Source of the DNA: Paraspadella gotoi
Lineage: Eukaryota; Animalia; Chaetognatha
Direction of reading: 5' to 3'
Length of the DNA stretch: 19,328 nt
NCBI GenBank assembly: GCA_051294375.1
Contig: JBJCIZ010000722.1
Location: forward strand, 22,327-41,654
Positions 2,970 through 16,199 of the stretch are shown piece by piece. The translations under genes and the position numbers were made by a program. The notes beneath the pieces were generated by a model. That model did not search any database. It saw only the letters and a program-made list of their open reading frames with translations, and was not told the DNA's origin. Numbering within the stretch: position 1 is the stretch's first letter; each line of letters starts with the position of its first letter.

Positions 2970-4031
2970 AGAGAGAGATAAAGTGTCTTTTGGTTTGAGA
3001 GGGAGAGAGGGATAGTATAGGGCTTACGCAATCGGGAGAATAATGGAGTAGCCGAGCTGAGAGATGAAAGGGATGTACGTAGGGGATGGTAAAGAGGAGA
3101 GAGAGAGAAAAGGAACGCATAAGGGCGGCATAATGAGAAGAAGAGTGAGAGTATCTAGGGGGGCCGAGACGGTTGACTGAGTTTTATCATAATAGAGGAA
3201 GTAAGGAGGATATACAGGAAGAAGGTGAAGTGGTAAGATGAGTAAAGTATAAGAAGGTTATACATCTTATCATATATTATAATAATTATGATTATTATAT
3301 ATATATATGATCCATTACACTGTGACGTGTTTGAGATATGTTCGTCTATGACTCACGCTATAAGCGGGTTTTTTTTTTAAGACGGATTCAGAGTGGTCAT
3401 AGCGAGTACCTATTCGTTCTATTCCACGTTCTCTTTGTCCCTATCCTTTCTGTCCTTGTCCTTTATCCTTTCGGGTCCTTCCTTTACTCTGCCTGTCACA
3501 ATCTTGCGATGCCTTTCTTTTTTCGAATTTCTCTTATACTTCCTCCCCTTTGCTATTTGATCCATAATCCTTTCTTCCTATCGGTTTAGACTGATCAAAT
3601 TCATCATCTTTTTCTGTCTTCCTCATTTTTATACTTTTTTTCATTTCGTCTCTTCCTCTGCGTTCCTATTCTTTTCCTTTCTGTTCCCTTTTCCTCAGCT
3701 GCTTTTTTTCTCAAGCCGCTTTTTTTTTCCTTTCTTACTTCCTTTCCCTAAATTCCCCCACTAAAAACTTTTGCTTTTATTTCGCTATATTAAGGCCGAC
3801 ATTCCTTAGTCTGAATCTCTTTTTGTTTTCTTTTATCTTTTCCGCCCCTTTCTTACCTCCTCTCCTCCCTATTCCTTTTGAGATTCACGGCGTCTCTGTC
3901 CTCTGGTCTTTTCCGTTTGTTATCCTCTCTTAACAGCTGTGGTTTTGATGAAGAACTGGAGTGAGGATGATTAGTTCTTGTGAAGATGTTTGAGAAGGAC
4001 TTAGGACTGATTAGTATGATTGAATTTATGC

Positions 4032-4113
4032 TTAGGGTTTAAGGTTAGGGTTAGGACTGAGGTTAGGTTAAGGTAGGAGGGTTGAGGGTTAAGGTTGAGG
4101 TCAAGGTTAGGGG
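4032..4113 (+). repeat. Degenerate telomere-like TTAGG/TTAGGG tract
   Basis: TTAGGG at 4032, 4045 and 4107 and TTAGG at 4051 and 4063, interspersed with TTAAGG/TTGAGG variants. Confidence 0.55.
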
Positions 4114-4670
4114 TTTGTTGTTGGGTTTTGGGTAAAAATCGTCCTTTTGTCAATGCTGGTTTTCGTGAAATTGATTGGCTTCACCATGTAATGGCCATCA
4201 ATTGCTCGATAACGATAGGTTTTGAACGTGGACAAAATCCTGCGCGTCCAACTTTTATCCTCGTAAGGCATCGATCCGCTCTTTTTCTTCCTCTCTGTCC
4301 TCCGCTATCGGTGGCGCTTATGCATCCGAAGGAAGTCTCTGGTGATGGATGCCTCTTCTTCCTCCTTCCGTCCTCGTAACAAAAAAGACACTTCACAATT
4401 GAAAAAAAGGAAAAGGGTCAGAGTGATCTACTCTGATTCAGATTCGAATTCTGAGTAAAAAATTTGTTATGTTTATTATTTTATATATATATGTAAGTTG
4501 TTGCTCGTAATTCAACAAATACAAATGTATATTGTAATATATATGGTAATCTGTTACTTCTTTTTTTGATTGTTTTTTTCCGCTAAAGGCAAATTAAAAC
4601 TTATTAGCAAAGAGACTAAAGACAAAAGACTTTAAAAAAAAATAAATAAAATAAAGTGACTCGTGAGACG

Positions 4671-5464
4671 ATGGCAGATGCGAGTAGTGACCCCGACGAT
4701 AAGGCAGCAGTGAAGAAGGTCGTTTGTCTCCGCGCTGTCCTGCGCTTTCTTCATGATCATTATCGCCGCAAGCAAAAAGTATCAGCTCGTGAGTTGGAGC
4801 GAGATCTGATGGAGCAGGAGAAAGAGGCCTTTGAAGAGTGTGGCGGCAGGTTAATGCCGCTCGATCAATGGTGAGATTAAATAAATAAACGTATGACGAA
4901 TATGAATGAGTGAATGAATAAATAAATAAATGATATACATTTTAAATAATGTGTTATTTATACATATATAAAACATTTATCAGGTGCCTACATCGAGCGG
5001 CCTTCGTGCGAACGATGGAGGGGAGCAGTGACGATGTTCTTGGTCCTTTCAAGAACTATGTTGCCAAACTTGCAGCCGTGTAAGAATTTCTTATAAATGA
5101 GATAAAGAAATATAGATGCATATCAATTATACATACTTAGTACCGAGTACTAATATATTGATTTTTTTTTTTTTTTTTGGTTAACAGGATCCGGGTCGCC
5201 GACAGGTCATGTTCCGACAAGTTCAAACCCAGATACGCACACCACATCGTTGAAGGTCGTCACTCCAGGGAACCCGACAAAATCCTCAGCAAGGGGGGAG
5301 TGATTAAGCATCGCGTCTTTATCGAACTGCCTCGCGAAATGGACAGTGATGCAGATGAAGACGAAGACGAAAAAGATTACGTTCATTCCCACCCTCCCAT
5401 TTACCTTGCAAAGGGGGAAGATCCTTTCGCTGTCTATAAAAGACAGAAATATAAACAATTTTGA
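4671..5464 (+). CDS. Unknown-family paralog A, ~190 aa, 3 exons (4671-4870, 4984-5079, 5188-5464)
   Basis: GT-AG introns 4871-4983 and 5080-5187 (both phase 2) join in frame: KKVVCLRAVLRFL...EECGGRLMPLDQWCLHRAAFVRT...AAVIRVADRS...HHIVEGRHSREPDKI. Aligns by eye to paralogs B and C across the junctions. Confidence 0.88.
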
Positions 5465-5550
5465 CCATTTAAATATTGATTTTATGTATTTTGTAAAACG
5501 TTTCTTTTGTAAATATGTTTCTTTCATTTTGGATTACAAATTCACATATT

Positions 5551-5557
5551 CTCTCCC

Positions 5558-5589
<32 letters not shown>

Positions 5590-5631
5590 ATTTTACACTT
5601 AAAATCTCGTTAATTAAATTCGTATTCAATT

Positions 5632-5671
<40 letters not shown>

Positions 5672-5720
5672 TATTTTATTTTACACTTAAAATCTCGTTA
5701 ATTAAATTCATATTCAAATT

Positions 5721-5773
<53 letters not shown>

Positions 5774-5940
5774 ATTTTACACTTAAAATCTCGTTAAATA
5801 AATTCATATTCAAATTCAATTATCTCTCTCTCTCTCTCTCTCTTTCAATCTCTCTCTCAACTCTCTCTCTCTCTCTCTCTCTCTCCTCTCTTATTTTCTT
5901 TTACACTTAAAATCTCGTTAAATAAATTCATATTCAAATT

Positions 5941-5977
<37 letters not shown>

Positions 5978-6020
5978 ATTTTACACTTAAAATCTCGTTA
6001 AATAAATTCATATTCAAATT

Positions 6021-6057
<37 letters not shown>

Positions 6058-6068
6058 AATCTCTCTCT

Positions 6069-6108
<40 letters not shown>

Positions 6109-6151
6109 CTTTTACACTTAAAATCTCGTTAAATAAATTCATATTCAAATT

Positions 6152-6203
<52 letters not shown>

Positions 6204-6214
6204 AATCTCTCTCT

Positions 6215-6261
<47 letters not shown>

Positions 6262-6401
6262 CTTTTACACTTAAAATCTCGTTAAATAAATTCATATTCA
6301 AATTCAAATCTCTCTCTCTCTCTCTCAATCTCTTTCTCTCTCTCTCTCTCTCTCTCAAATTCAAATCTCTCTCTCTCTCTCTCAATCTCTCTGTCTCTCA
6401 A

Positions 6402-6445
<44 letters not shown>
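5551..6445. repeat. Compound tandem repeat: seven ~55-bp units separated by variable (CT)n tracts
   Basis: Unit TTATTTTATTTTACACTTAAAATCTCGTTAAATAAATTCATATTCAAATTCAAAT begins near 5583, 5671, 5767, 5891, 5971, 6102 and 6256, each flanked by CT microsatellite. Confidence 0.95.
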
Positions 6446-6523: not shown

Positions 6524-7389
6524 ATGGCAGAAAAAGGACTCATTGACTGGGCTAAGTTGAAGGCAGAAAGACGAAAGGATAAAAAAAATCACTCCCAAAA
6601 AGACCGTTTGCCTTCGAGGAGTGATTTTTTTCATGCAGTTTATCAAAAATGCAGCGGAGGGCGTGGTACGAATGACGAATCAAGACCTCGAAACCCGGAT
6701 TCTTGAAAAAGAATCACTAGGTTTTGACGAGTTAGGCGGCGCGAGACTACCAGTGAGTGCGTTTTAACCAGAAATATAAAATTAAAAAAGCTAATCATTG
6801 TTTAAATCTATTCACTATCATTTTATCGACTTATAATAATTTTCCTCCCTCCCCTTTTCTTTAAATTTGTCCTAGTTACATCAATGGTGTCTCCATCGTG
6901 CGACATGGTTCGCGACTCACCGAAAGAAAGCCAACGATTTGGAAGAGTTCCGGATTTACGTGCTACATCTGCTTGACATGTAAGTCAATTCTTTGTGATT
7001 GTTTATTTCTTTGTTATTTCTATATCACCTCTCTATCATCTCTCTCACCAATCCGCTTCTGTTTCATATTTTCTCGTATTTTAACCCCTTACTTCTACCC
7101 CTCCCCTCACCTTAGTCTCACAGAAGTAGACGAAGAGTCCAACCTCACCCTCGCACATGCAGAATACCACTTCATACGTGATGGGCGAGAGGAACGATAC
7201 CCCAATCTCATCGCGACCAACATGGGAACAGTCATGAAAAAACAATCTTTTGCTATTGAAGACAAGCGGAATGGTGAAATAAGATTTGGAACTGTTTACG
7301 TTAGAGATGAGGATGATAGAAAAGCGGAAAGTGAAAGAAAGGCTCTCCAAGAAGATCAATATAATTTTTCTTTAAATAACTTTAAATGA
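6524..7389 (+). CDS. Unknown-family paralog B, ~201 aa if a 1-nt frameshift in the A8 run (6581-6588) is corrected; 3 exons (6524-6752, 6876-6979, 7116-7389); possibly a pseudogene
   Basis: The shifted frame reads ITPKKTVCLRGVIFFM...DLETRILEKESLGFDELGGARLP|LHQWCLHRATWFAT...LLDI|LTEVDEES...HFIRDGREERYPNLI. GT-AG introns at 6753-6875 (phase 0) and 6980-7115 (phase 2). Clear similarity to A and C. Confidence 0.82.
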
Positions 7390-8049: not shown

Positions 8050-8737
8050 ATGAGCAGTGAAAAAGAAAAGAAAAAACCTCCTAGTAAAACTGTATGTCTT
8101 TTTGCTGTATTAAAACTCTTACGTGACTGCTCCAATGAGATTACTAATCATGATCTTGAGAACAAACTCATTCGACTCGAGAAGACGGGTTTCCCTGAAG
8201 TCGGTGGTGAAAGACTTCAAAGATCAGATTTCGCCCTTTTACGAGCCAGCTTCTTCCGCACAAGGGCTCGTAGAGCTTCGGAGTTGCCTCTCTTCATGCA
8301 GCATATTCAACATGTATGGAAAATGTTAGTAACAATTTCTTTTCTCTCTCTCTCTCTCTCCTCTCTCCTCCCTCCTCCCTCCAAGCTTCTTTTCTCTGAA
8401 TAAAATATCAATTAACAACTATTTTGCTTACAATGAATTTTTTTTTATTTACTATTTATTACATTTCAGCATTCGTGAGGCTGACGATCGTTCCCGTTCG
8501 GAGGATGAAAGGGCAGAGGAAATTCGACACATCTCTGAAGGTTTTGAAAAACGTCACCCACCCGAAATCATTGGAATAGATGGAGTAGTCATGGAACGTT
8601 GCACAGTACTTAAATATAATATTGACTCAAAAAACTCAGATCTATCAGATTATTATAGTTTTGTTGAAGTGTATTCTCCTAAAGGAGAAAATGTTTTTTA
8701 TTCATTGAAAAAACAGGACGCTATGCTTAAAAATTGA
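8050..8737 (+). CDS. Unknown-family paralog C, ~180 aa, 2 exons (8050-8324, 8470-8737)
   Basis: SKTVCLFAVLKLL...DLENKLIRLEKTGFPEVGGERL...LLRASFFRT; phase-2 GT-AG intron 8325-8469; then IIREADDRS...RHISEGFEKRHPPEIIGIDGVV...VYSPKGENVF, matching the C-terminal exon of A (IYLAKGEDPF). Confidence 0.88.
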
Positions 8738-8837: not shown

Positions 8838-9221
8838 ATGGATAATTCCCTGAGTAACGATGCTGATTCTTCTGATGAAGAAAATGAACTAATCAACCAA
8901 CTTTTAATATCCCCACCGTTGGAGGAAATAAATGAAAATACATTAAAAATTACTAGTTATTTAACAAACGACATGTTTTCTGGTATCAGTTCGAAAAAAA
9001 TTTTTTTTCGAGAAATTCAAGAGCGAGAGAAGCGACTATTATTAGAAACCGAATTAATATGTTATCTTTCTCATGTTCAAAATTACCTTCGCCAACTCTT
9101 GCGGCCAAGAGACGAACAACACCATCCACTTCGTTATTTGGTCTGGCTCGCCACAGGTTACTATTTGATAAAACTAATATTAATTATAATAAAATTCATA
9201 TTATTTATATTATCGTATTAC

Positions 9222-9272
<51 letters not shown>

Positions 9273-12200
9273 TTCTTTCTCTTACTCAACATACATATAA
9301 TAACCAACCTACCTATATAAATACTTAACTATTTTTTCTCTCTCCTTCAGAAATCGAATTCGGAAGAGCAACAGATTTGAGCGATAGAATCTCACACTGG
9401 TGTTCCTACAGGAACCAGCATTGGCTTTTGGATGTAACAGACCAGGTTCAAGAGTTCATTACAAATATGATTCAATCGTTTTTTGATTTTGTTGTAAATC
9501 ACGTATCTTACATGGCAGAGTTAAGAGAAAGTGGATGGATTTACCTATTCCTAAAATCTGTACACGTTAGACATGTAGCAGCTCCCTCTACTAATAACTT
9601 AATACGCTATGGAAATAATTTAACTGAGAAAAGGTTATTTAATGAAGATTTACGTTCCATCTTTTTGAGGAATGTATATGATACAAGTAACTATATTTTG
9701 ACCAATGAAAAAATGAATTTATGCGTTTTATTTGGAATAATGCTCAGTTTAGAAAATAAATTCGGTGAGGAACATCGTTTGAGTAGAATACCTAAGAAAT
9801 ATGCAAGAGAAATTGTCTCAGCAATTGAAACTGGTGACTTGATAAGCCTAGACAATGATGGACTACACGTCAATGACTTTTTAAAACTTGAAAAACTCAA
9901 TTCACCCATACCAAATTCTTTAATTAAATTTTACCCTGAATTAGCTTGTTTTCAGGGGTTATCACTTAACCTGTTTAAAATCAGAAAGGCGGTTGATTTT
10001 AAAGCTTATTCAATCTTTCCAATCGCGTTAAGTTCTCATCACAATGACGATAGAAATTATCACCAAGTTGATCTATTGATTGACTCACCAGACATCAGGC
10101 CATCGGATGAGGGCGACCTTACTGTAGATTATAACGAAAGAGAACATATTCTGTACATTTCCGACCTTGCAAGGTTATTAACAACGTTTCGATCCGTGAC
10201 TGAAAGAAAATTCAATACAGATCGTCTTAAGCATATTTGTCGTGCTTGCATTAATTTATTTGCAGATGAACAGGCTTATTTTAATCACACCCAACTTTGT
10301 AAGGCATTTTCAGCTGGGCAAGGCCGTCGCGAGGCTTCCAATAAAACAGTTCATGTAACACATATAGAAAATTCATGGACTGGAGAATTGGAAAAAAATG
10401 TTCTTAAATTCGAAAGAAGAATGTTGTATAAAAAAATTAAACCGCTATTTTTCTCCTGCATTGATTTTGAGTCCACCACTGTCACAGTGAATCACACTGA
10501 CACTGACACTCACAATGTAAAATCTAACTTAACGCCACTCCTAAAATCCGCAATTTCTGAGCAAAGACCGTTAGCTTATAGTTTGGTTCATAAGAGTCTG
10601 TATGAAAAAGATTTTCCCTTACCAAGAGAATTGAAAACTCCACGCTGTAAATTTTTAGATGAAAAGATACAAACAGAAAAAGATTTCTTTATTAAACTTC
10701 TTTTAACACTTAGAGACGATGCTTGGAAGTTACACCAGCATACACAAACTGTATTTAAGATGGATAAGGGAACTCCGACTTTAGAAGAATTGAGTTTGAA
10801 CGAAAAAATTAAATATGCCTTGCAAGATTTTTGTGATTTATGTGGCCGTAAATTTAATTCTAAGTCTAAAAATAAATATAGCGGAAAAGTATATACTTTA
10901 AAAAAAACGATTGATCATTCTCACATTGATTCAGGGAAAAAAAAAATGAGATTTTTAACATGCGCCGGATGTAATCTTAATCTTGTGGACTTTTTACCAT
11001 ATAAAATCGGACACACAATCTATGCTCATTTTGGGTCGCATTACGACGCCGTTTTCATGCTTTCAGGGATTTTAGAAGCAGCAACACATTGCACTAATGT
11101 ATCACACAATGTAATAGCTGACCCAATTTTTAAGCCCATAATAAAACAAGCCCCAAAAGTTTTATTCCGCGGTAATGAGAACACGCCTCTCTCTATTCGA
11201 TTTAAGTTTTCATGCCCTTATCCATCCATTTGTCCAAAATGTTCTTGTTCCAAAGGAGAAAGAGAGACTTTTTCAAGAATTAATGGTTATACACTAAAGT
11301 GCTTTTCTGACAGATATTTAATTATCTCTGATAGTTTTTTCATTATCAGTCATTCTCTTTCTAATATAATACATGATCTTAATGAAACAGCACACAAAAA
11401 TGCCACGCATATCAATGATGAAAATCACGCACTTACAGAAATTTTTTCATCGACTTACGAATTTGTTAAAAATTGTGGTTACCAAGACTCATTTTTTCAA
11501 TTTTTGATTCGTCAAAAAGTCGTCATGCCTTTTAAACTATTTACCAATTTTGAAACAATTCAAAATATTACAGAAATTCCGAGCATAGAAAGCTTCCACT
11601 CTGAGTTAAGTGGAAAAGATAAAATATCTCACGAACAGTATGAAGTTTTCAAAAAGGTTTGGAATGGATTAGGTGTTGATAATTTATTTGAAATGGTTTA
11701 TTTTTATGTCAATTTCGATTCATTGAACCTGATCGATTCACTTTCATATTATTTTGGATTTTTGCATACTGTCTGCGAATTTTATCCAGCAAATTTTTTG
11801 GTATAGTATATTTGGTATGATTTGAAGATAATAATAATAATAATAATAATATTTATCTGTTTCTAGACCATTTCAAGCCTGGCTCTTACATCTGTTTTAT
11901 TTCATGCAAAAAGTCCGACCCAACCAGACAAAAGAATCGAATTAGAAATGTTAGACGCTGAGACACATCAAATCTTTGAAAATAACTTGGTACAATTAAT
12001 CATTTTTGTTAAATTTTTAATAATAATAACGCATCATAATTCCATTACACCATTTCAGTTGGGAGGGTTTGCTGCTATATTTTCTTTTCTTGGAGAATAC
12101 GACTTTGATAGAGAAGAGGAAATAGCGACAGCTTCGTACGTGGATGCTAATGGTGAGTTAATAAGGTGACTTAACTTTAATATGTAATCTATTTAATATT

Positions 12201-14152
12201 CTAACTTGAACGAATTTTAATTTCAGTACTTAAAATATAGATGATCATTTCTTTTTATATAACTCTGTAAATACAAACTCCCTCTTTTTCCCCTACAAAA
12301 ACCAAAAAAGAAAAAAACAAAAGTCACCTTTTTATTGATAAAGAATTTTTAAAACAATATATATAATATTTTTTCTATCCTTTTGCTTAGGGCTATATCC
12401 CTTTTCTATGACGAATTTTTTGCCCTTTGACGGTTTTGAAATCCTTCGAAAAACGTCCCACCCAGAAGTTTTTAATTTTTTAAGTGAAAAGTTATTGTCA
12501 TGTGACGTTGACTATTTTCACGATGCTTTGATAAATAAGAACGTTGGGTATTTGTTTGTGGTAGTATGTCAAACAGATATAGATGACATAACTAAAAGCC
12601 TAAATTATGATTTATGTCAATTCCCAAACAAAACATTAGTAAAAAGTTACGAGCTCCACTCGGATCAAATTAAAGCTGCTTTAAAACTAGGACGTCGAAT
12701 TGATAAAGAAACTGGAAAGTTAGTTTCCACGGTTTACACTCAACCCACTGAAATCTCTGATTACGTTGAAAATCTTCTTTATATGATTCTTATTCATAAC
12801 ATAGGAGTTTCAAAAGTCCTTAAAATTGTGCGATTTAATTCGTATCGTTTTTTAGATGATTATATGCAATATTTGCAAGACCAAAGATCTAAAATGAGCT
12901 CAAAAATTTTAGGGAAGTGTGTAAAACAGCTTTCAAACGCTGTTTGTGGAAAATTCCATGAGAGGCGATCTAAGTATCTTAATTCATCAGTCTGTATAGG
13001 AAAAGAAAAGTTTTTAAAGGAAGTTAATAAAATTCATTTTTTCGATTTTCGAAAAATTTCTCAAGAAGCGGTGGTTGTCCTAAAGGACGGTGCCAGTAAT
13101 ATTGACAAATCTGTTCCACAAATAAGCTCAAGGATTTACTCTAATTCTAAACTATTTTTGTGGCGAAATTATTTCAACATTGCAGCTAATATAGCCAAAA
13201 TCGGTGACATTAATACTCGCCTGATGCTCACAGGTATATATTTGAAAGTAATTATTTGTGTAATTGTTTTATAATTAATTTATTAATCAATTTATTTATT
13301 ATAATTAGATACCGATAGTATGGTCTGCTCTTTCATTAAAACGAAGTCTGATTTAGAAAGAAAAGAATTGCATGATTTGCAATTATCAGATAAGCAAATT
13401 GCACTATCACTCAGTCTTACTGGAAGTAATTGGGGAAATATATATTTGGAAACTTTTGGTCCTTTGCTCGATTTTTCTTGTCTCAACAAGGTATTTGATT
13501 GTTTTGTCTTAAAATATAATTATTGTAAATATCATTAATTATAATATTATTAATATATATAATAGGATTCTTTTATATATCAATGTTTGATGACAAAAGA
13601 ACCTAAATTACTTCAAGTTCTGCTAAACTTTTTGAGTCAAACTGACAAAAATACCTGTGGACTTTTTAAGGATGAACTAGGCACACAAATTATCAAGGTT
13701 AATTCTAATATAATTATTTATATTAGTAATAATAATAATTAATAATAATAATAATAATCTATCTTTTTTAGACCGTCTTCGCTACTTCTGTTAAGCAATA
13801 CTCAATTTCTACTTATCCAAATAATCCGGACTTTCCCCTTAATAAATTAGGGGGAAATAAAGATGTCAAATTATCTGTCGCTAAATCTAAGGGAGTTAAA
13901 AGAAATGTATTTTTAAACAATATTACTACTGAGGATTACAGAAAGGCTGTAAGTACAGACGAACCGACTCGAAAGGTTACACAACACGGGATAAGAAGGC
14001 GAAACCAGAGGATCTTCATTGTGAAAGAAAAAAAAAAACTTCTCACTCGTTTCACATCCAAACGCTTATATCGTAACAAAGACAATAATAATAGATTTTT
14101 TTTTACACATCCCTTGTATTTAAAAAATGTTTTGTCAAGCGAGTCTTCATAA
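8838..14152 (+). CDS. polB: Protein-primed family B DNA polymerase (Maverick/Polinton/adintovirus type), ~1507 aa, 8 exons: 8838-9156, 9351-11800, 11867-11989, 12059-12152, 12391-13233, 13309-13490, 13566-13697, 13772-14152
   Basis: Seven GT-AG introns (194, 66, 69, 238, 75, 75, 74 nt) give one open frame. Ordered motifs: ESGW, NLCVLFG, HILYISDLARLL, CRAC..H..C, ExoI IDFES, ExoII HFGSHYD, ISDSF..SLS, QKVVMPF, ExoIII YVNFD, LGG, motif A YVDANGLYP, motif B KQLSNAVCGKF, motif C LTDTDS, GLFKDE, KQYS, KSKGVKR..ITTEDY. Confidence 0.95.
9226..9282. repeat. (CT)n microsatellite in pPolB intron 1 (similar tracts at ~915-970, 8343-8370, 19021-19059, 19222-19245)
   Basis: Direct inspection. Confidence 0.9.
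10832..10984 (+). other. Endonuclease VII-like (His-Me finger) module inserted in the pPolB exonuclease domain
   Basis: CDLC...IDHSHIDSG...RFLTCAGCNLNL matches the CxxC...DHxH..G..R...CxxCN pattern. It lies between ExoI (10463) and ExoII (~11042), as in many animal Polinton polymerases. Confidence 0.85.
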
Positions 14153-14263: not shown

Positions 14264-16199
14264 ATGCCTGATGTTAATCTTACCCAAGATACAGCAGCTG
14301 TAGAAAAACGCTACGAAGATTTCTATAAATTGCCTCTTGATCAAGATTTATTGTCCACTGTGCGCTTGACACACGATCGCATCGCCATATTTGCAACTGA
14401 CGATAAGAACGAGCCCATCGTCGAAATCCGCCGTGTCGACAACGAAATCAACAGAAATTGGAAAGAGGTAAATAATTTCTCTTAGTTTTTCTGATAATTT
14501 TAAATTTCAGTTTTATTAATAATAATTAAACTTTCTTTTTTAGTCTGGTTTCGCCACAAACGACTGTCGTCGCTGTTGGGTCTTGCCTCTATGGCACCTC
14601 ATACTCTTGGCTAAGGAAGGTGCCTTTCAAATTCTACAGGTTAAATATTTTTTTTTTACTTTACATTTTAAACTTAGCTCTCTCTCTCTAACTTTTATTC
14701 ACCCCTCTCCCTTTTTTTAGATCGCCATTAACGAACTCAACAGGGAACTCAACGCCAACACTGAGCTTCGCATCGACTCCGATCGTGTCACGCAGATTTG
14801 TGAGGTAATATTAAAATGTGAATCCGAATAATCAAATCTGTTTCCTTTATTTTTTTCATTTTTTGTCTCACAGAAATACCTTATCCAAAAGTCGCGCGTG
14901 TCATCAAGCTCTTACGGTCTTGAACTTTGTCATGAACGTGAAAAACGGACACAATCAGGTATATAGTCATTGACAGCTCATGACCACTAGATACTTATTT
15001 CAACCCAACCCAATACCTACTCAGTAAAAAAACATAAAGATGGTCATCAATCACCTCGGCAACGTAAAAAAAAAAAAACTCTCAAACACAATTCTAAACC
15101 CAAGACTCGTTCCATTGCTACTGAGCACTTACTTGTCTTATCCACAGGCATTGTCCCAGCCGGTTATTTTGCGCAAATCCGCCGTATCGTAAACACCAAC
15201 AACAACGACGTTCAATTCGTTTCGCCTTTCCATCCTGGATCTCCTGGGATGCGTGCGCAGACACATATTTGGACTCGCCTATACCAGGAAAGACGCAACT
15301 AATAATAATAATAATAATAATAATAATAGTAATAATAATAGTAATAATTTATCTTAAGCATTTAAACTCTATTACATCTCGAAATACAAATTAAATAAAT
15401 ATTTTACTTAATATTTGTTTTTATTTTTTTACAGGCGATGTTTTGTTTGCCGTTTCCTGGTCGGCACACCTACGACGACTATAAGGAACATGAGGCTGAA
15501 TATCAGCAGGCTCAACTCCCACCCGCTGAGTCTGGTGATTGGTTTAACTACAGCGATTCAAGACGAACAAGATCCGAATCTTATGTCCCTCCAAAGTTTC
15601 GTCGAAACTTCTTCGGAGAGATGGCGACTCTGGCTCTCCAAGAGCACTTCGACGAGTGCCTTGACCCTGAAAGATGCGACACCTGCGAGAGCGGAGTTAC
15701 CGTTGAGATGATTGAAGATTGGGACGAGTAAGTTTTTTTGTTGCTCATATTAACTAAATAATTTCATTTCTTACATTATCATTTTCTACTACTCCATTAT
15801 ATCCTCACTCCTTCCTTTTTTCAGAAATCATCGTGGCGCGACGTTGTACAAGAAGTTCGAGGGTCGAACGGCGATGGATATCATCGTTGATGAGAAAAAA
15901 TGGACCGTGACCAAAGGTTCTTTCTTTTTATTTAGATTTTTTAAAAGATATTTTAAAAATTCAGTATTTTTATCCGTACTAATTGAACATATATTGTATT
16001 TTCAGTTCAATCCTCGAATCCCTCGCCTACAACCTCGTCGGCAAATGGTTCCAATCAGCTTCTTCCTTCACTGACACCGTCGGAAAGAATGCGCCGTCGT
16101 CTCACTGAAAGAAAAAGAAAGTCGGATGAGGAGCTTCTTTCCAGTAACCTCCCCGATTCTTCACGTTCAACGACCCAGCCGCTGTCTAACGGACGCTAA
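14264..16199 (+). CDS. Hypothetical protein ~395 aa, 8 exons (14264-14467, 14544-14639, 14721-14804, 14874-14958, 15148-15287, 15435-15727, 15825-15916, 16006-16199); possible tandem PC4-like ssDNA-binding protein
   Basis: Six GT-AG introns plus one inferred GA-AG intron (15288-15434) keep one frame. Two repeats resemble PC4 (PIVEIRR...WVLPLWHLILL; YFAQIRR...PGSPGMRAQTHIWTRL). These are followed by HxxxCxxxxxCxxC and a Ser-rich tail with RRRLTERKRK. Could instead be two genes split at TAA 15300-15302. Confidence 0.75.
15300..15347. repeat. (AAT)n microsatellite inside predicted intron (similar tracts at 11829-11850 and 13728-13758)
   Basis: Direct inspection; all three lie within predicted introns. 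Confidence 0.9.

Follow-up and report, generated by a model that had tools for sequence, protein, structure and literature searches.

We analysed 19,328 nucleotides (nt) of DNA from the chaetognath Paraspadella gotoi (contig JBJCIZ010000722.1, positions 22,327 to 41,654; hereafter the window), which carry a protein-primed family B DNA polymerase (pPolB) gene divided among eight exons. Joined, these give 4524 nt that encode 1507 amino acids (aa) and a stop codon, with no internal stops. All seven introns are GT-AG, range from 66 to 238 nt, and have GC contents of 8-27%, compared with 30-42% for the exons; six contain an in-frame stop. Intron 3, of 69 nt, is stop-free and keeps the frame, so that splicing at this point is forced by homology alone. 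Two phase-1 introns fall within catalytic motifs: intron 4 interrupts the Gly codon of motif A (YVDAN^GLYP), and intron 5 interrupts the first Asp codon, D1277, of motif C (LT^DTDS). A reading of the locus made earlier from its letters (the sequence-only reading) had proposed eight exons, seven GT-AG introns and about 1507 codons without a stop, which the sequence and homologs over all junctions bear out; its placement of introns 4 and 5 in the motif A Gly and motif C Asp codons is likewise seen in the sequence.

Homologous proteins span every junction. Among 154 tested, junctions 1 to 7 are crossed by 11, 27, 16, 10, 4, 1 and 1 homologs, and most of the displayed rows show no gap at the junction. 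The homolog P0002 (38% identity) reads continuously across junctions 5, 6 and 7, and three others (P0010, P0015 and P0076) align from residues 2-9 in exon 1. A profile built from 28 canonical pPolBs recognises the spliced protein at 275 bits (E 6e-80), whereas only three of 44 unspliced open reading frames (ORFs) in the window score against it, at 99, 64 and 35 bits. Nine sequencing runs contain the stretch; X7-X9 hold only small shares of it, and the figures for X6 are identical to those for X5. A 3549-nt contig in X5 and X6 matches gene D, the gene directly downstream of the polymerase, with six GT-AG joints, and because the DNA run X2 lacks these joints, X5 behaves as RNA, although no run is recorded as such, which counts as evidence in neither direction. 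Within X5, a 241-nt contig (depth 2.6) joins position 11799 to 11866, which corresponds to removal of intron 2.

By its profile, Atlas and fold matches, the protein is a Polinton/adintovirus pPolB, probably of the Alpha type. Motifs Exo I-III and Pol A, B and C are present in order, and the exonuclease and polymerase carboxylates, the motif-B Lys, Asn and Gly, the DTDS of motif C and the KxY motif are all there. The exonuclease residues in exon 2 are D478/E480, D672 and Y892/D896, with an endonuclease VII-like insert within. Exon 2 alone is recognised by the canonical profile (E 1e-26), lies in the ESM Atlas, at 0.95, beside clusters that carry DNA_pol_B_2 and Endonuclease_7, and yields an AlphaFold model (predicted local distance difference test, pLDDT, 85.6) that Foldseek aligns with polymerases of adintoviruses, bidna-like viruses and adenoviruses (E 1e-12 at best); a model of P0002, at pLDDT 45, was too poor and was left unused. 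Foldseek of the exon 2 model against the PDB gave nothing under E 0.001, no PDB sequence matched exon 5 at an E below 0.79, and Pfam found no polymerase family in any window exon tested; PF03175 exceeds its cut-off in two of 19 homologs and in none of the window exons. Cys and His motifs near the N terminus line up with the OTU region of canonical proteins, with no match to an OTU profile or PDB fold. Such a region is described for adintovirus PolB (PMC8502044). The Cys/His of the OTU region and the endonuclease insert are retained throughout the clade of relatives described below.

HMM and structure searches had been proposed in the sequence-only reading as a check: the profile places the spliced protein with the pPolBs, and Foldseek matches the exon 2 model to viral members. 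The label "Polinton-type" that had been given to it holds for the polymerase; it does not extend to an element, as genes for an integrase, a capsid or an ATPase went undetected in the 19 kb. "Intact" applies to the frame and the carboxylates and fails for the aromatic residue of motif B, which is replaced. The expectation that ORF-based searches would miss the gene is correct in that Pfam recognises no polymerase family in the exons tested and the longest ORF, of 825 aa, falls below the 900-aa filter of one survey (PMC10748475), and incorrect in that a custom profile finds exon 2.

The aromatic of motif B, KxxxNSx(Y/F)G, is kept in 27 of the 28 control proteins. It is Cys in the window protein (KQLSNAVCG; C1181), and C, A, P, S or N stands in its place in all 12 clade members that reach the column (ten alignment rows, P0001 and P0002; four clade rows end before it). 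Taking the motif as KxxxNSxYG, we equate this residue with Y567 in the RB69 polymerase. There, the Y567A substitution leaves the catalytic parameters unchanged (PMC3792054) and raises the error rate, with mismatches incorporated about tenfold faster (PMC5009745). Since the aromatic is replaced across the clade, lower fidelity is predicted: the enzyme would be active yet less accurate, with working proofreading.

A search with exon 2 found 276 clusters at E<=0.001, the best 150 of which have 27-43% identity; identity to full-length canonical pPolBs is 20-26%. Ten clusters of this clade were looked up; they come from ENA, Logan, JGI and "merc", which we take to be a marine eukaryote catalogue, and none has a name or any member from NCBI or UniRef; the ENA contigs are up to 13.7 kb long. 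A tree was built from 14 rows of the clade and a control set of 28 (four proteins plus 24 of 26 IMG/VR loci; L004 and L021, at less than 800 aa, were left out and L028-L029 were unused). In it the two sets separate with an SH-like approximate likelihood ratio test (SH-aLRT) value of 100 and about 1.6 changes per site between them, so that the phylogeny called for at the outset places the spliced protein in a separate clade, on a long branch from canonical pPolBs. Neither clade members nor the first ORF turned up in scans of IMG/VR, and exon 5 used by itself as a query retrieved no long relatives.

A second gene is seen in L001, a 6382-nt metagenome contig whose polymerase has an open frame and is 35% identical over 1317 aligned residues. 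Of its four GT-AG introns, two coincide exactly with introns 5 and 6 in position and in phase, a third is offset by 2 nt relative to intron 4, and the fourth is private. It has no counterpart of introns 2, 3 and 7, and the contig does not reach the region of intron 1. The chance of two exact matches is 1e-5 if all sites are allowed and 0.01 if only AG^R sites are. The displaced pair inside motif A (2668-2814 in L001, 12153-12390 in the window) may reflect sliding or two separate gains. Among 150 homolog ORFs, 40 end in Arg (9.7 expected; p 1e-14). We infer that these ends may arise from gene callers reading into phase-2 AG^GTAA or AG^GTGA donors. In the control loci, by comparison, all motifs lie within one ORF in 24 of 26, although IMG/VR may favour intron-free contigs. 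An origin of the seven introns from introners was considered and is unsupported, as a repeat search joins them by short AT-rich likeness only. The distinct clade, its hundreds of environmental members, the conserved intron sites and a conserved spliced neighbour support the proposal of an intron-rich, splicing-dependent pPolB lineage.

That neighbour is gene D (Table 1). Pfam, applied to its separate exons, found no family. Its start may resemble a PC4-like fold. An ortholog lies directly behind the polymerase in L001 (24% identity, E 1e-23) with five introns, none at an identical site; gene D, a conserved partner, may be a DNA-binding factor. Its fifth intron is placed at 15288-15434, with GA-AG ends and the context CAG^GAA, because only then does gene D agree in length with the X5 contig; removing it leaves a 395-aa open frame. 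A copepod and a larvacean have many GA-AG introns set in such a context (PMC7072748), and the case hints at a host spliceosome that accepts GA donors. Upstream of the polymerase stand three tandem paralogous genes with 33-41% identity in matched pieces. The middle one has an apparent frame change near 6570-6590, which is either a true break or an assembly error, and between the first two (5537-6445) lies a tandem array of 80-96-nt units around (TC)n tracts.

Table 1. Coordinates of the polymerase gene and its spliced neighbours in the window
Feature	Position	Strand	Description
Upstream paralog, first	4671-5464	+	Spliced; no family found
Upstream paralog, middle	~6524-7389	+	Spliced; no family found
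Upstream paralog, third	8050-8737	+	Spliced; no family found
pPolB exon 1	8838..9156	+	ATG at 8838; N-terminal, probably terminal-protein region
Intron 1	9157..9350	+	194 nt, phase 1; contains (TC)n tract; basis homology only
Exon 2	9351..11800	+	OTU-like protease region with Cys and His, zinc finger, 3'-5' exonuclease
Intron 2	11801..11866	+	66 nt, phase 0; removed in one X5 contig
Exon 3	11867..11989	+	Gene model and homologs
Intron 3	11990..12058	+	69 nt, phase 0; gene model and homologs
Exon 4	12059..12152	+	First half of motif A (D993)
Intron 4	12153..12390	+	238 nt, phase 1; within motif A
Exon 5	12391..13233	+	Remainder of motif A, fingers, motif B (K1174, N1178, C1181), start of motif C
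Intron 5	13234..13308	+	75 nt, phase 1; in D1277 of motif C
Exon 6	13309..13490	+	Motif C DTDS
Intron 6	13491..13565	+	75 nt, phase 0; P0001 alignment breaks off here
Exon 7	13566..13697	+	Gene model and homologs
Intron 7	13698..13771	+	74 nt, phase 0
Exon 8	13772..14152	+	KxY motif, thumb, stop
Gene D	14264..16199	+	8 exons, 395 aa; transcribed and spliced; directly after pPolB

Elsewhere in the window, an intron-free, Cys/His-rich ORF (1399-2944) of at least 515 aa enters a gap of 25 N and includes a C2H2-like stretch faintly like the zinc finger of the polymerase; the ESM Atlas offered no usable family for 1399-2943 (recognition 1669). On the minus strand, from 18838 to about 17780 and convergent with gene D, a four-exon GT-AG model encodes 233 aa, among them a stretch rich in Ser and Thr and a single predicted membrane helix (87-105); Pfam gave nothing for the two exons scanned. 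A degenerate TTAGG/TTAGGG-like tract at 4020-4115 follows purine-rich and pyrimidine-rich blocks, and an inverted repeat with 64-nt arms, 78% complementary, occupies 225-399 in the AT-rich left end. Rfam had no match in the window.

In the organism, the polymerase gene has company. In the DNA run X2 the window copy is present at a depth of 130-180, alongside diverged copies (about 80% identity in matching patches) at about 420-1270. One diverged X2 copy runs from the end of the polymerase into gene D in the same order, and a diverged copy in X2 has an AT-rich stretch at intron 3 before the exon and an intron 4 of about 68 nt. A further copy, seen in X8 and absent from the other three runs compared, starts at the intron 6 acceptor, at the same site, and is longer by about 67 nt over the stretch of intron 7. 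Of the differences found in the polymerase exons a subset of 55 was listed, and 38 of these affect the third base of a codon once the exons are joined (p 7e-8). The depth ratios of two copies are alike in X2 and X5 (1188:510:155 and 30:12:~3), contig depth being a poor measure. That one organism has several diverged copies with introns, at unequal depths, argues against domestication as a single-copy gene. It favours, without proving it, a family of elements or of viruses that persist, rather than one gene of the host.

Hallmarks of an element were sought by comparison with canonical loci. From 26 such loci, 93 ORFs were compared with the window by tblastn, and none matches at E<0.01; the 50 of them that were scanned include ten rve integrases, five capsid proteins and two A32 ATPases, with no protease identified among the controls. 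With no integrase, capsid or ATPase detected, membership in the Polintons is not shown. Nor does the locus have the intronless genes expected of a Polinton, as introns are found in pPolB, gene D, the diverged copies and L001.

We consider it likely, on balance, that the spliced pPolB is the replicase of an unnamed, intron-rich group of mobile elements or viruses of Polinton origin, maintained in the nucleus of the host as several multi-copy families. The mRNA would come from host RNA polymerase II and the spliceosome, and excision of introns 4 and 5 would be needed to build motifs A and C; because the active site would be assembled by removing these two introns, the element would depend on the nucleus. 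The OTU-like protease would free an N-terminal terminal protein, and this protein would prime synthesis at the ends of a linear genome, as has been proposed for adintoviruses. The exonuclease, with its carboxylates intact, would act in proofreading. Without the motif-B aromatic, base pairs would be selected less strictly, as with RB69 Y567A, and this loss could help explain the long branch of the clade. Within the clade, introns would have been gained and lost, some becoming long fixed. A bolder version, which we hold only tentatively, is that the window is a piece of a viral genome. The viruses would form an undescribed family in marine plankton, with linear, protein-primed, intron-rich DNA that replicates in the nucleus; they would be of Polinton descent and have their own gene set, their polymerase would be naturally error-prone for want of the motif-B aromatic, and their lineages, in the hundreds, would already lie in metagenomes as unnamed exon fragments.

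Several observations weigh against a replicase of nuclear mobile elements or viruses. The window is gene-sparse and microsatellite-rich and resembles host chromosome. Neither Pfam nor tblastn matched an rve integrase in the 19 kb, beyond which an element may extend; capsid, A32 ATPase and maturation protease went undetected in the window, in a test weakened by short exons and divergence; and there are no terminal repeats and no repeat between the window ends, although the true ends may lie elsewhere. With repeats and virion genes missing, neither mobility nor virions are demonstrated. Contig depth, here unscaled to single-copy host sequence, is no copy number. The proposed RNA mapping, which covered introns 2 to 7, turned out mixed: intron 2 is spliced, introns 3, 4, 6 and 7 are unbridged in X5, and intron 5 is retained as an unspliced run-in in another X5 contig, so that splicing is seen at one junction of seven, in one low-depth contig. 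The RNA status of X5 is itself a guess from its behaviour, and X6 merely repeats its data. The clade and the controls were picked by similarity to different queries, which makes their split partly one of construction, and with no outgroup the tree shows distance and not origin. Finally, our equation of the motif-B residue with RB69 Y567 is an assumption.

The strongest alternative, which we nonetheless regard as unlikely, is an ordinary Polinton or adintovirus whose integrase and capsid module lies outside the 19-kb piece or is too diverged or intron-fragmented to be detected. The polymerase is laid out like those of the Alpha type, OTU-like region and endonuclease VII insert included; the window, which contains a gap, may be incomplete; tblastn and Pfam fail on short exons; and the copies keep like depth ratios in X2 and X5, as integrated families that are stable would. 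However, some 8.8 kb upstream and 5 kb downstream contain orphan spliced genes only, genes for rve, capsid and A32 ATPase are among the canonical ORFs that fail to match the window, L001 shares gene D as the conserved neighbour and not an integrase, and intact vertebrate Mavericks are described as being without introns (PMC8097293).

More doubtful still is an old domestication from a Polinton, by which the gene would now belong to a small host family and have gained introns like other host genes. Intron-rich, gene-sparse, microsatellite-rich surroundings, the open frame and third-position bias, the recurrence of the same diverged copies in runs from three studies, and microsynteny with gene D in a relative whose polymerase is 35% identical all suit such a history. 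It sits poorly with depth differences of up to about eight-fold among copies in one DNA run and a variant seen in X8 only, with the anonymity of all ten clade clusters looked up, with neighbours that are all orphans without host-type domains, and with the clade-wide retention of the OTU Cys/His and the endonuclease insert. A domesticated host polymerase, the second option of the sequence-only reading, is thus disfavoured, rather than rejected, in view of diverged copies at unequal depth.

We think it very improbable that the polymerase is weakened or dead through its motif-B change and kept for an exonuclease, protease or structural role. The near-universal presence of the aromatic in the controls and its absence from every clade member that could be scored invite the idea, but the motif A Asp, the motif B Lys and Asn, DTDS and KxY are retained here and in L001, and RB69 Y567A keeps its catalytic parameters (PMC3792054). 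A pseudogene, or splicing by chance, is ruled out by the homologs across the junctions, the introns of L001 and the profile score of the spliced protein.

Among known systems, Polintons/Mavericks (adintoviruses, Alpha PolB class) share the OTU-like region, the exonuclease and the polymerase motifs in the same order (PMC8502044, PMC8097293) and give the best structural and profile matches, at 20-26% identity to canonical members. In contrast to them, the window gene has seven introns, has lost the motif-B aromatic, stands on a separate long branch, and has no rve, capsid or ATPase detected beside it. The pPolB2 of nematode and oomycete Polintons resembles it in an HNH/endonuclease VII-like zinc domain inside the exonuclease region, and differs, in a comparison by description only, in having been selected as ORFs of at least 900 aa beside an integrase (PMC10748475). 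That survey, as described, would therefore have dropped the window gene. More generally, descriptions of Polinton-type polymerases, and searches for them, assume one long ORF free of introns, so that a whole spliced clade escapes such surveys. Literature searches brought up no paper that describes a spliced clade of pPolBs or this loss in motif B, although supplements or RepBase could hold annotated spliced examples, and passages of PMC12220804, PMC10748475 and bioRxiv 10.64898/2026.06.19.733378 do not mention spliceosomal introns in pPolB.

Adenoviruses replicate in the nucleus and have spliced transcripts; the catalytic region of their polymerase is one exon, unlike that of the window gene. 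Their polymerases and those of bidnavirus-like viruses share the same fold class, and adenovirus PolB is described as being without OTU (PMC8502044). Mirusviruses have short GT-AG introns near 80 nt in viral genes, taken as a sign of nuclear life; they belong to another realm, and their intron-rich lineages have mostly lost the DNA polymerase, whereas here the polymerase bears the introns (PMC12768974). The introner-invaded eupolintoviruses of dinoflagellates are Polinton-like elements with spliceosomal introns that are recent transposon copies (PMC12166617), in contrast to the two sites conserved at 35% protein identity in the window gene. Introns in Polinton-like elements and intron-rich nuclear viruses are thus already known; added here are the clade, its conserved introns and the motif-B change. 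The clade offers a system for tracing intron gain, intron loss and near-site pairs within one viral-type gene, and its loss of a fidelity residue is a natural counterpart of a well-studied laboratory mutator, which turns a higher natural tolerance of error into a directly testable question.

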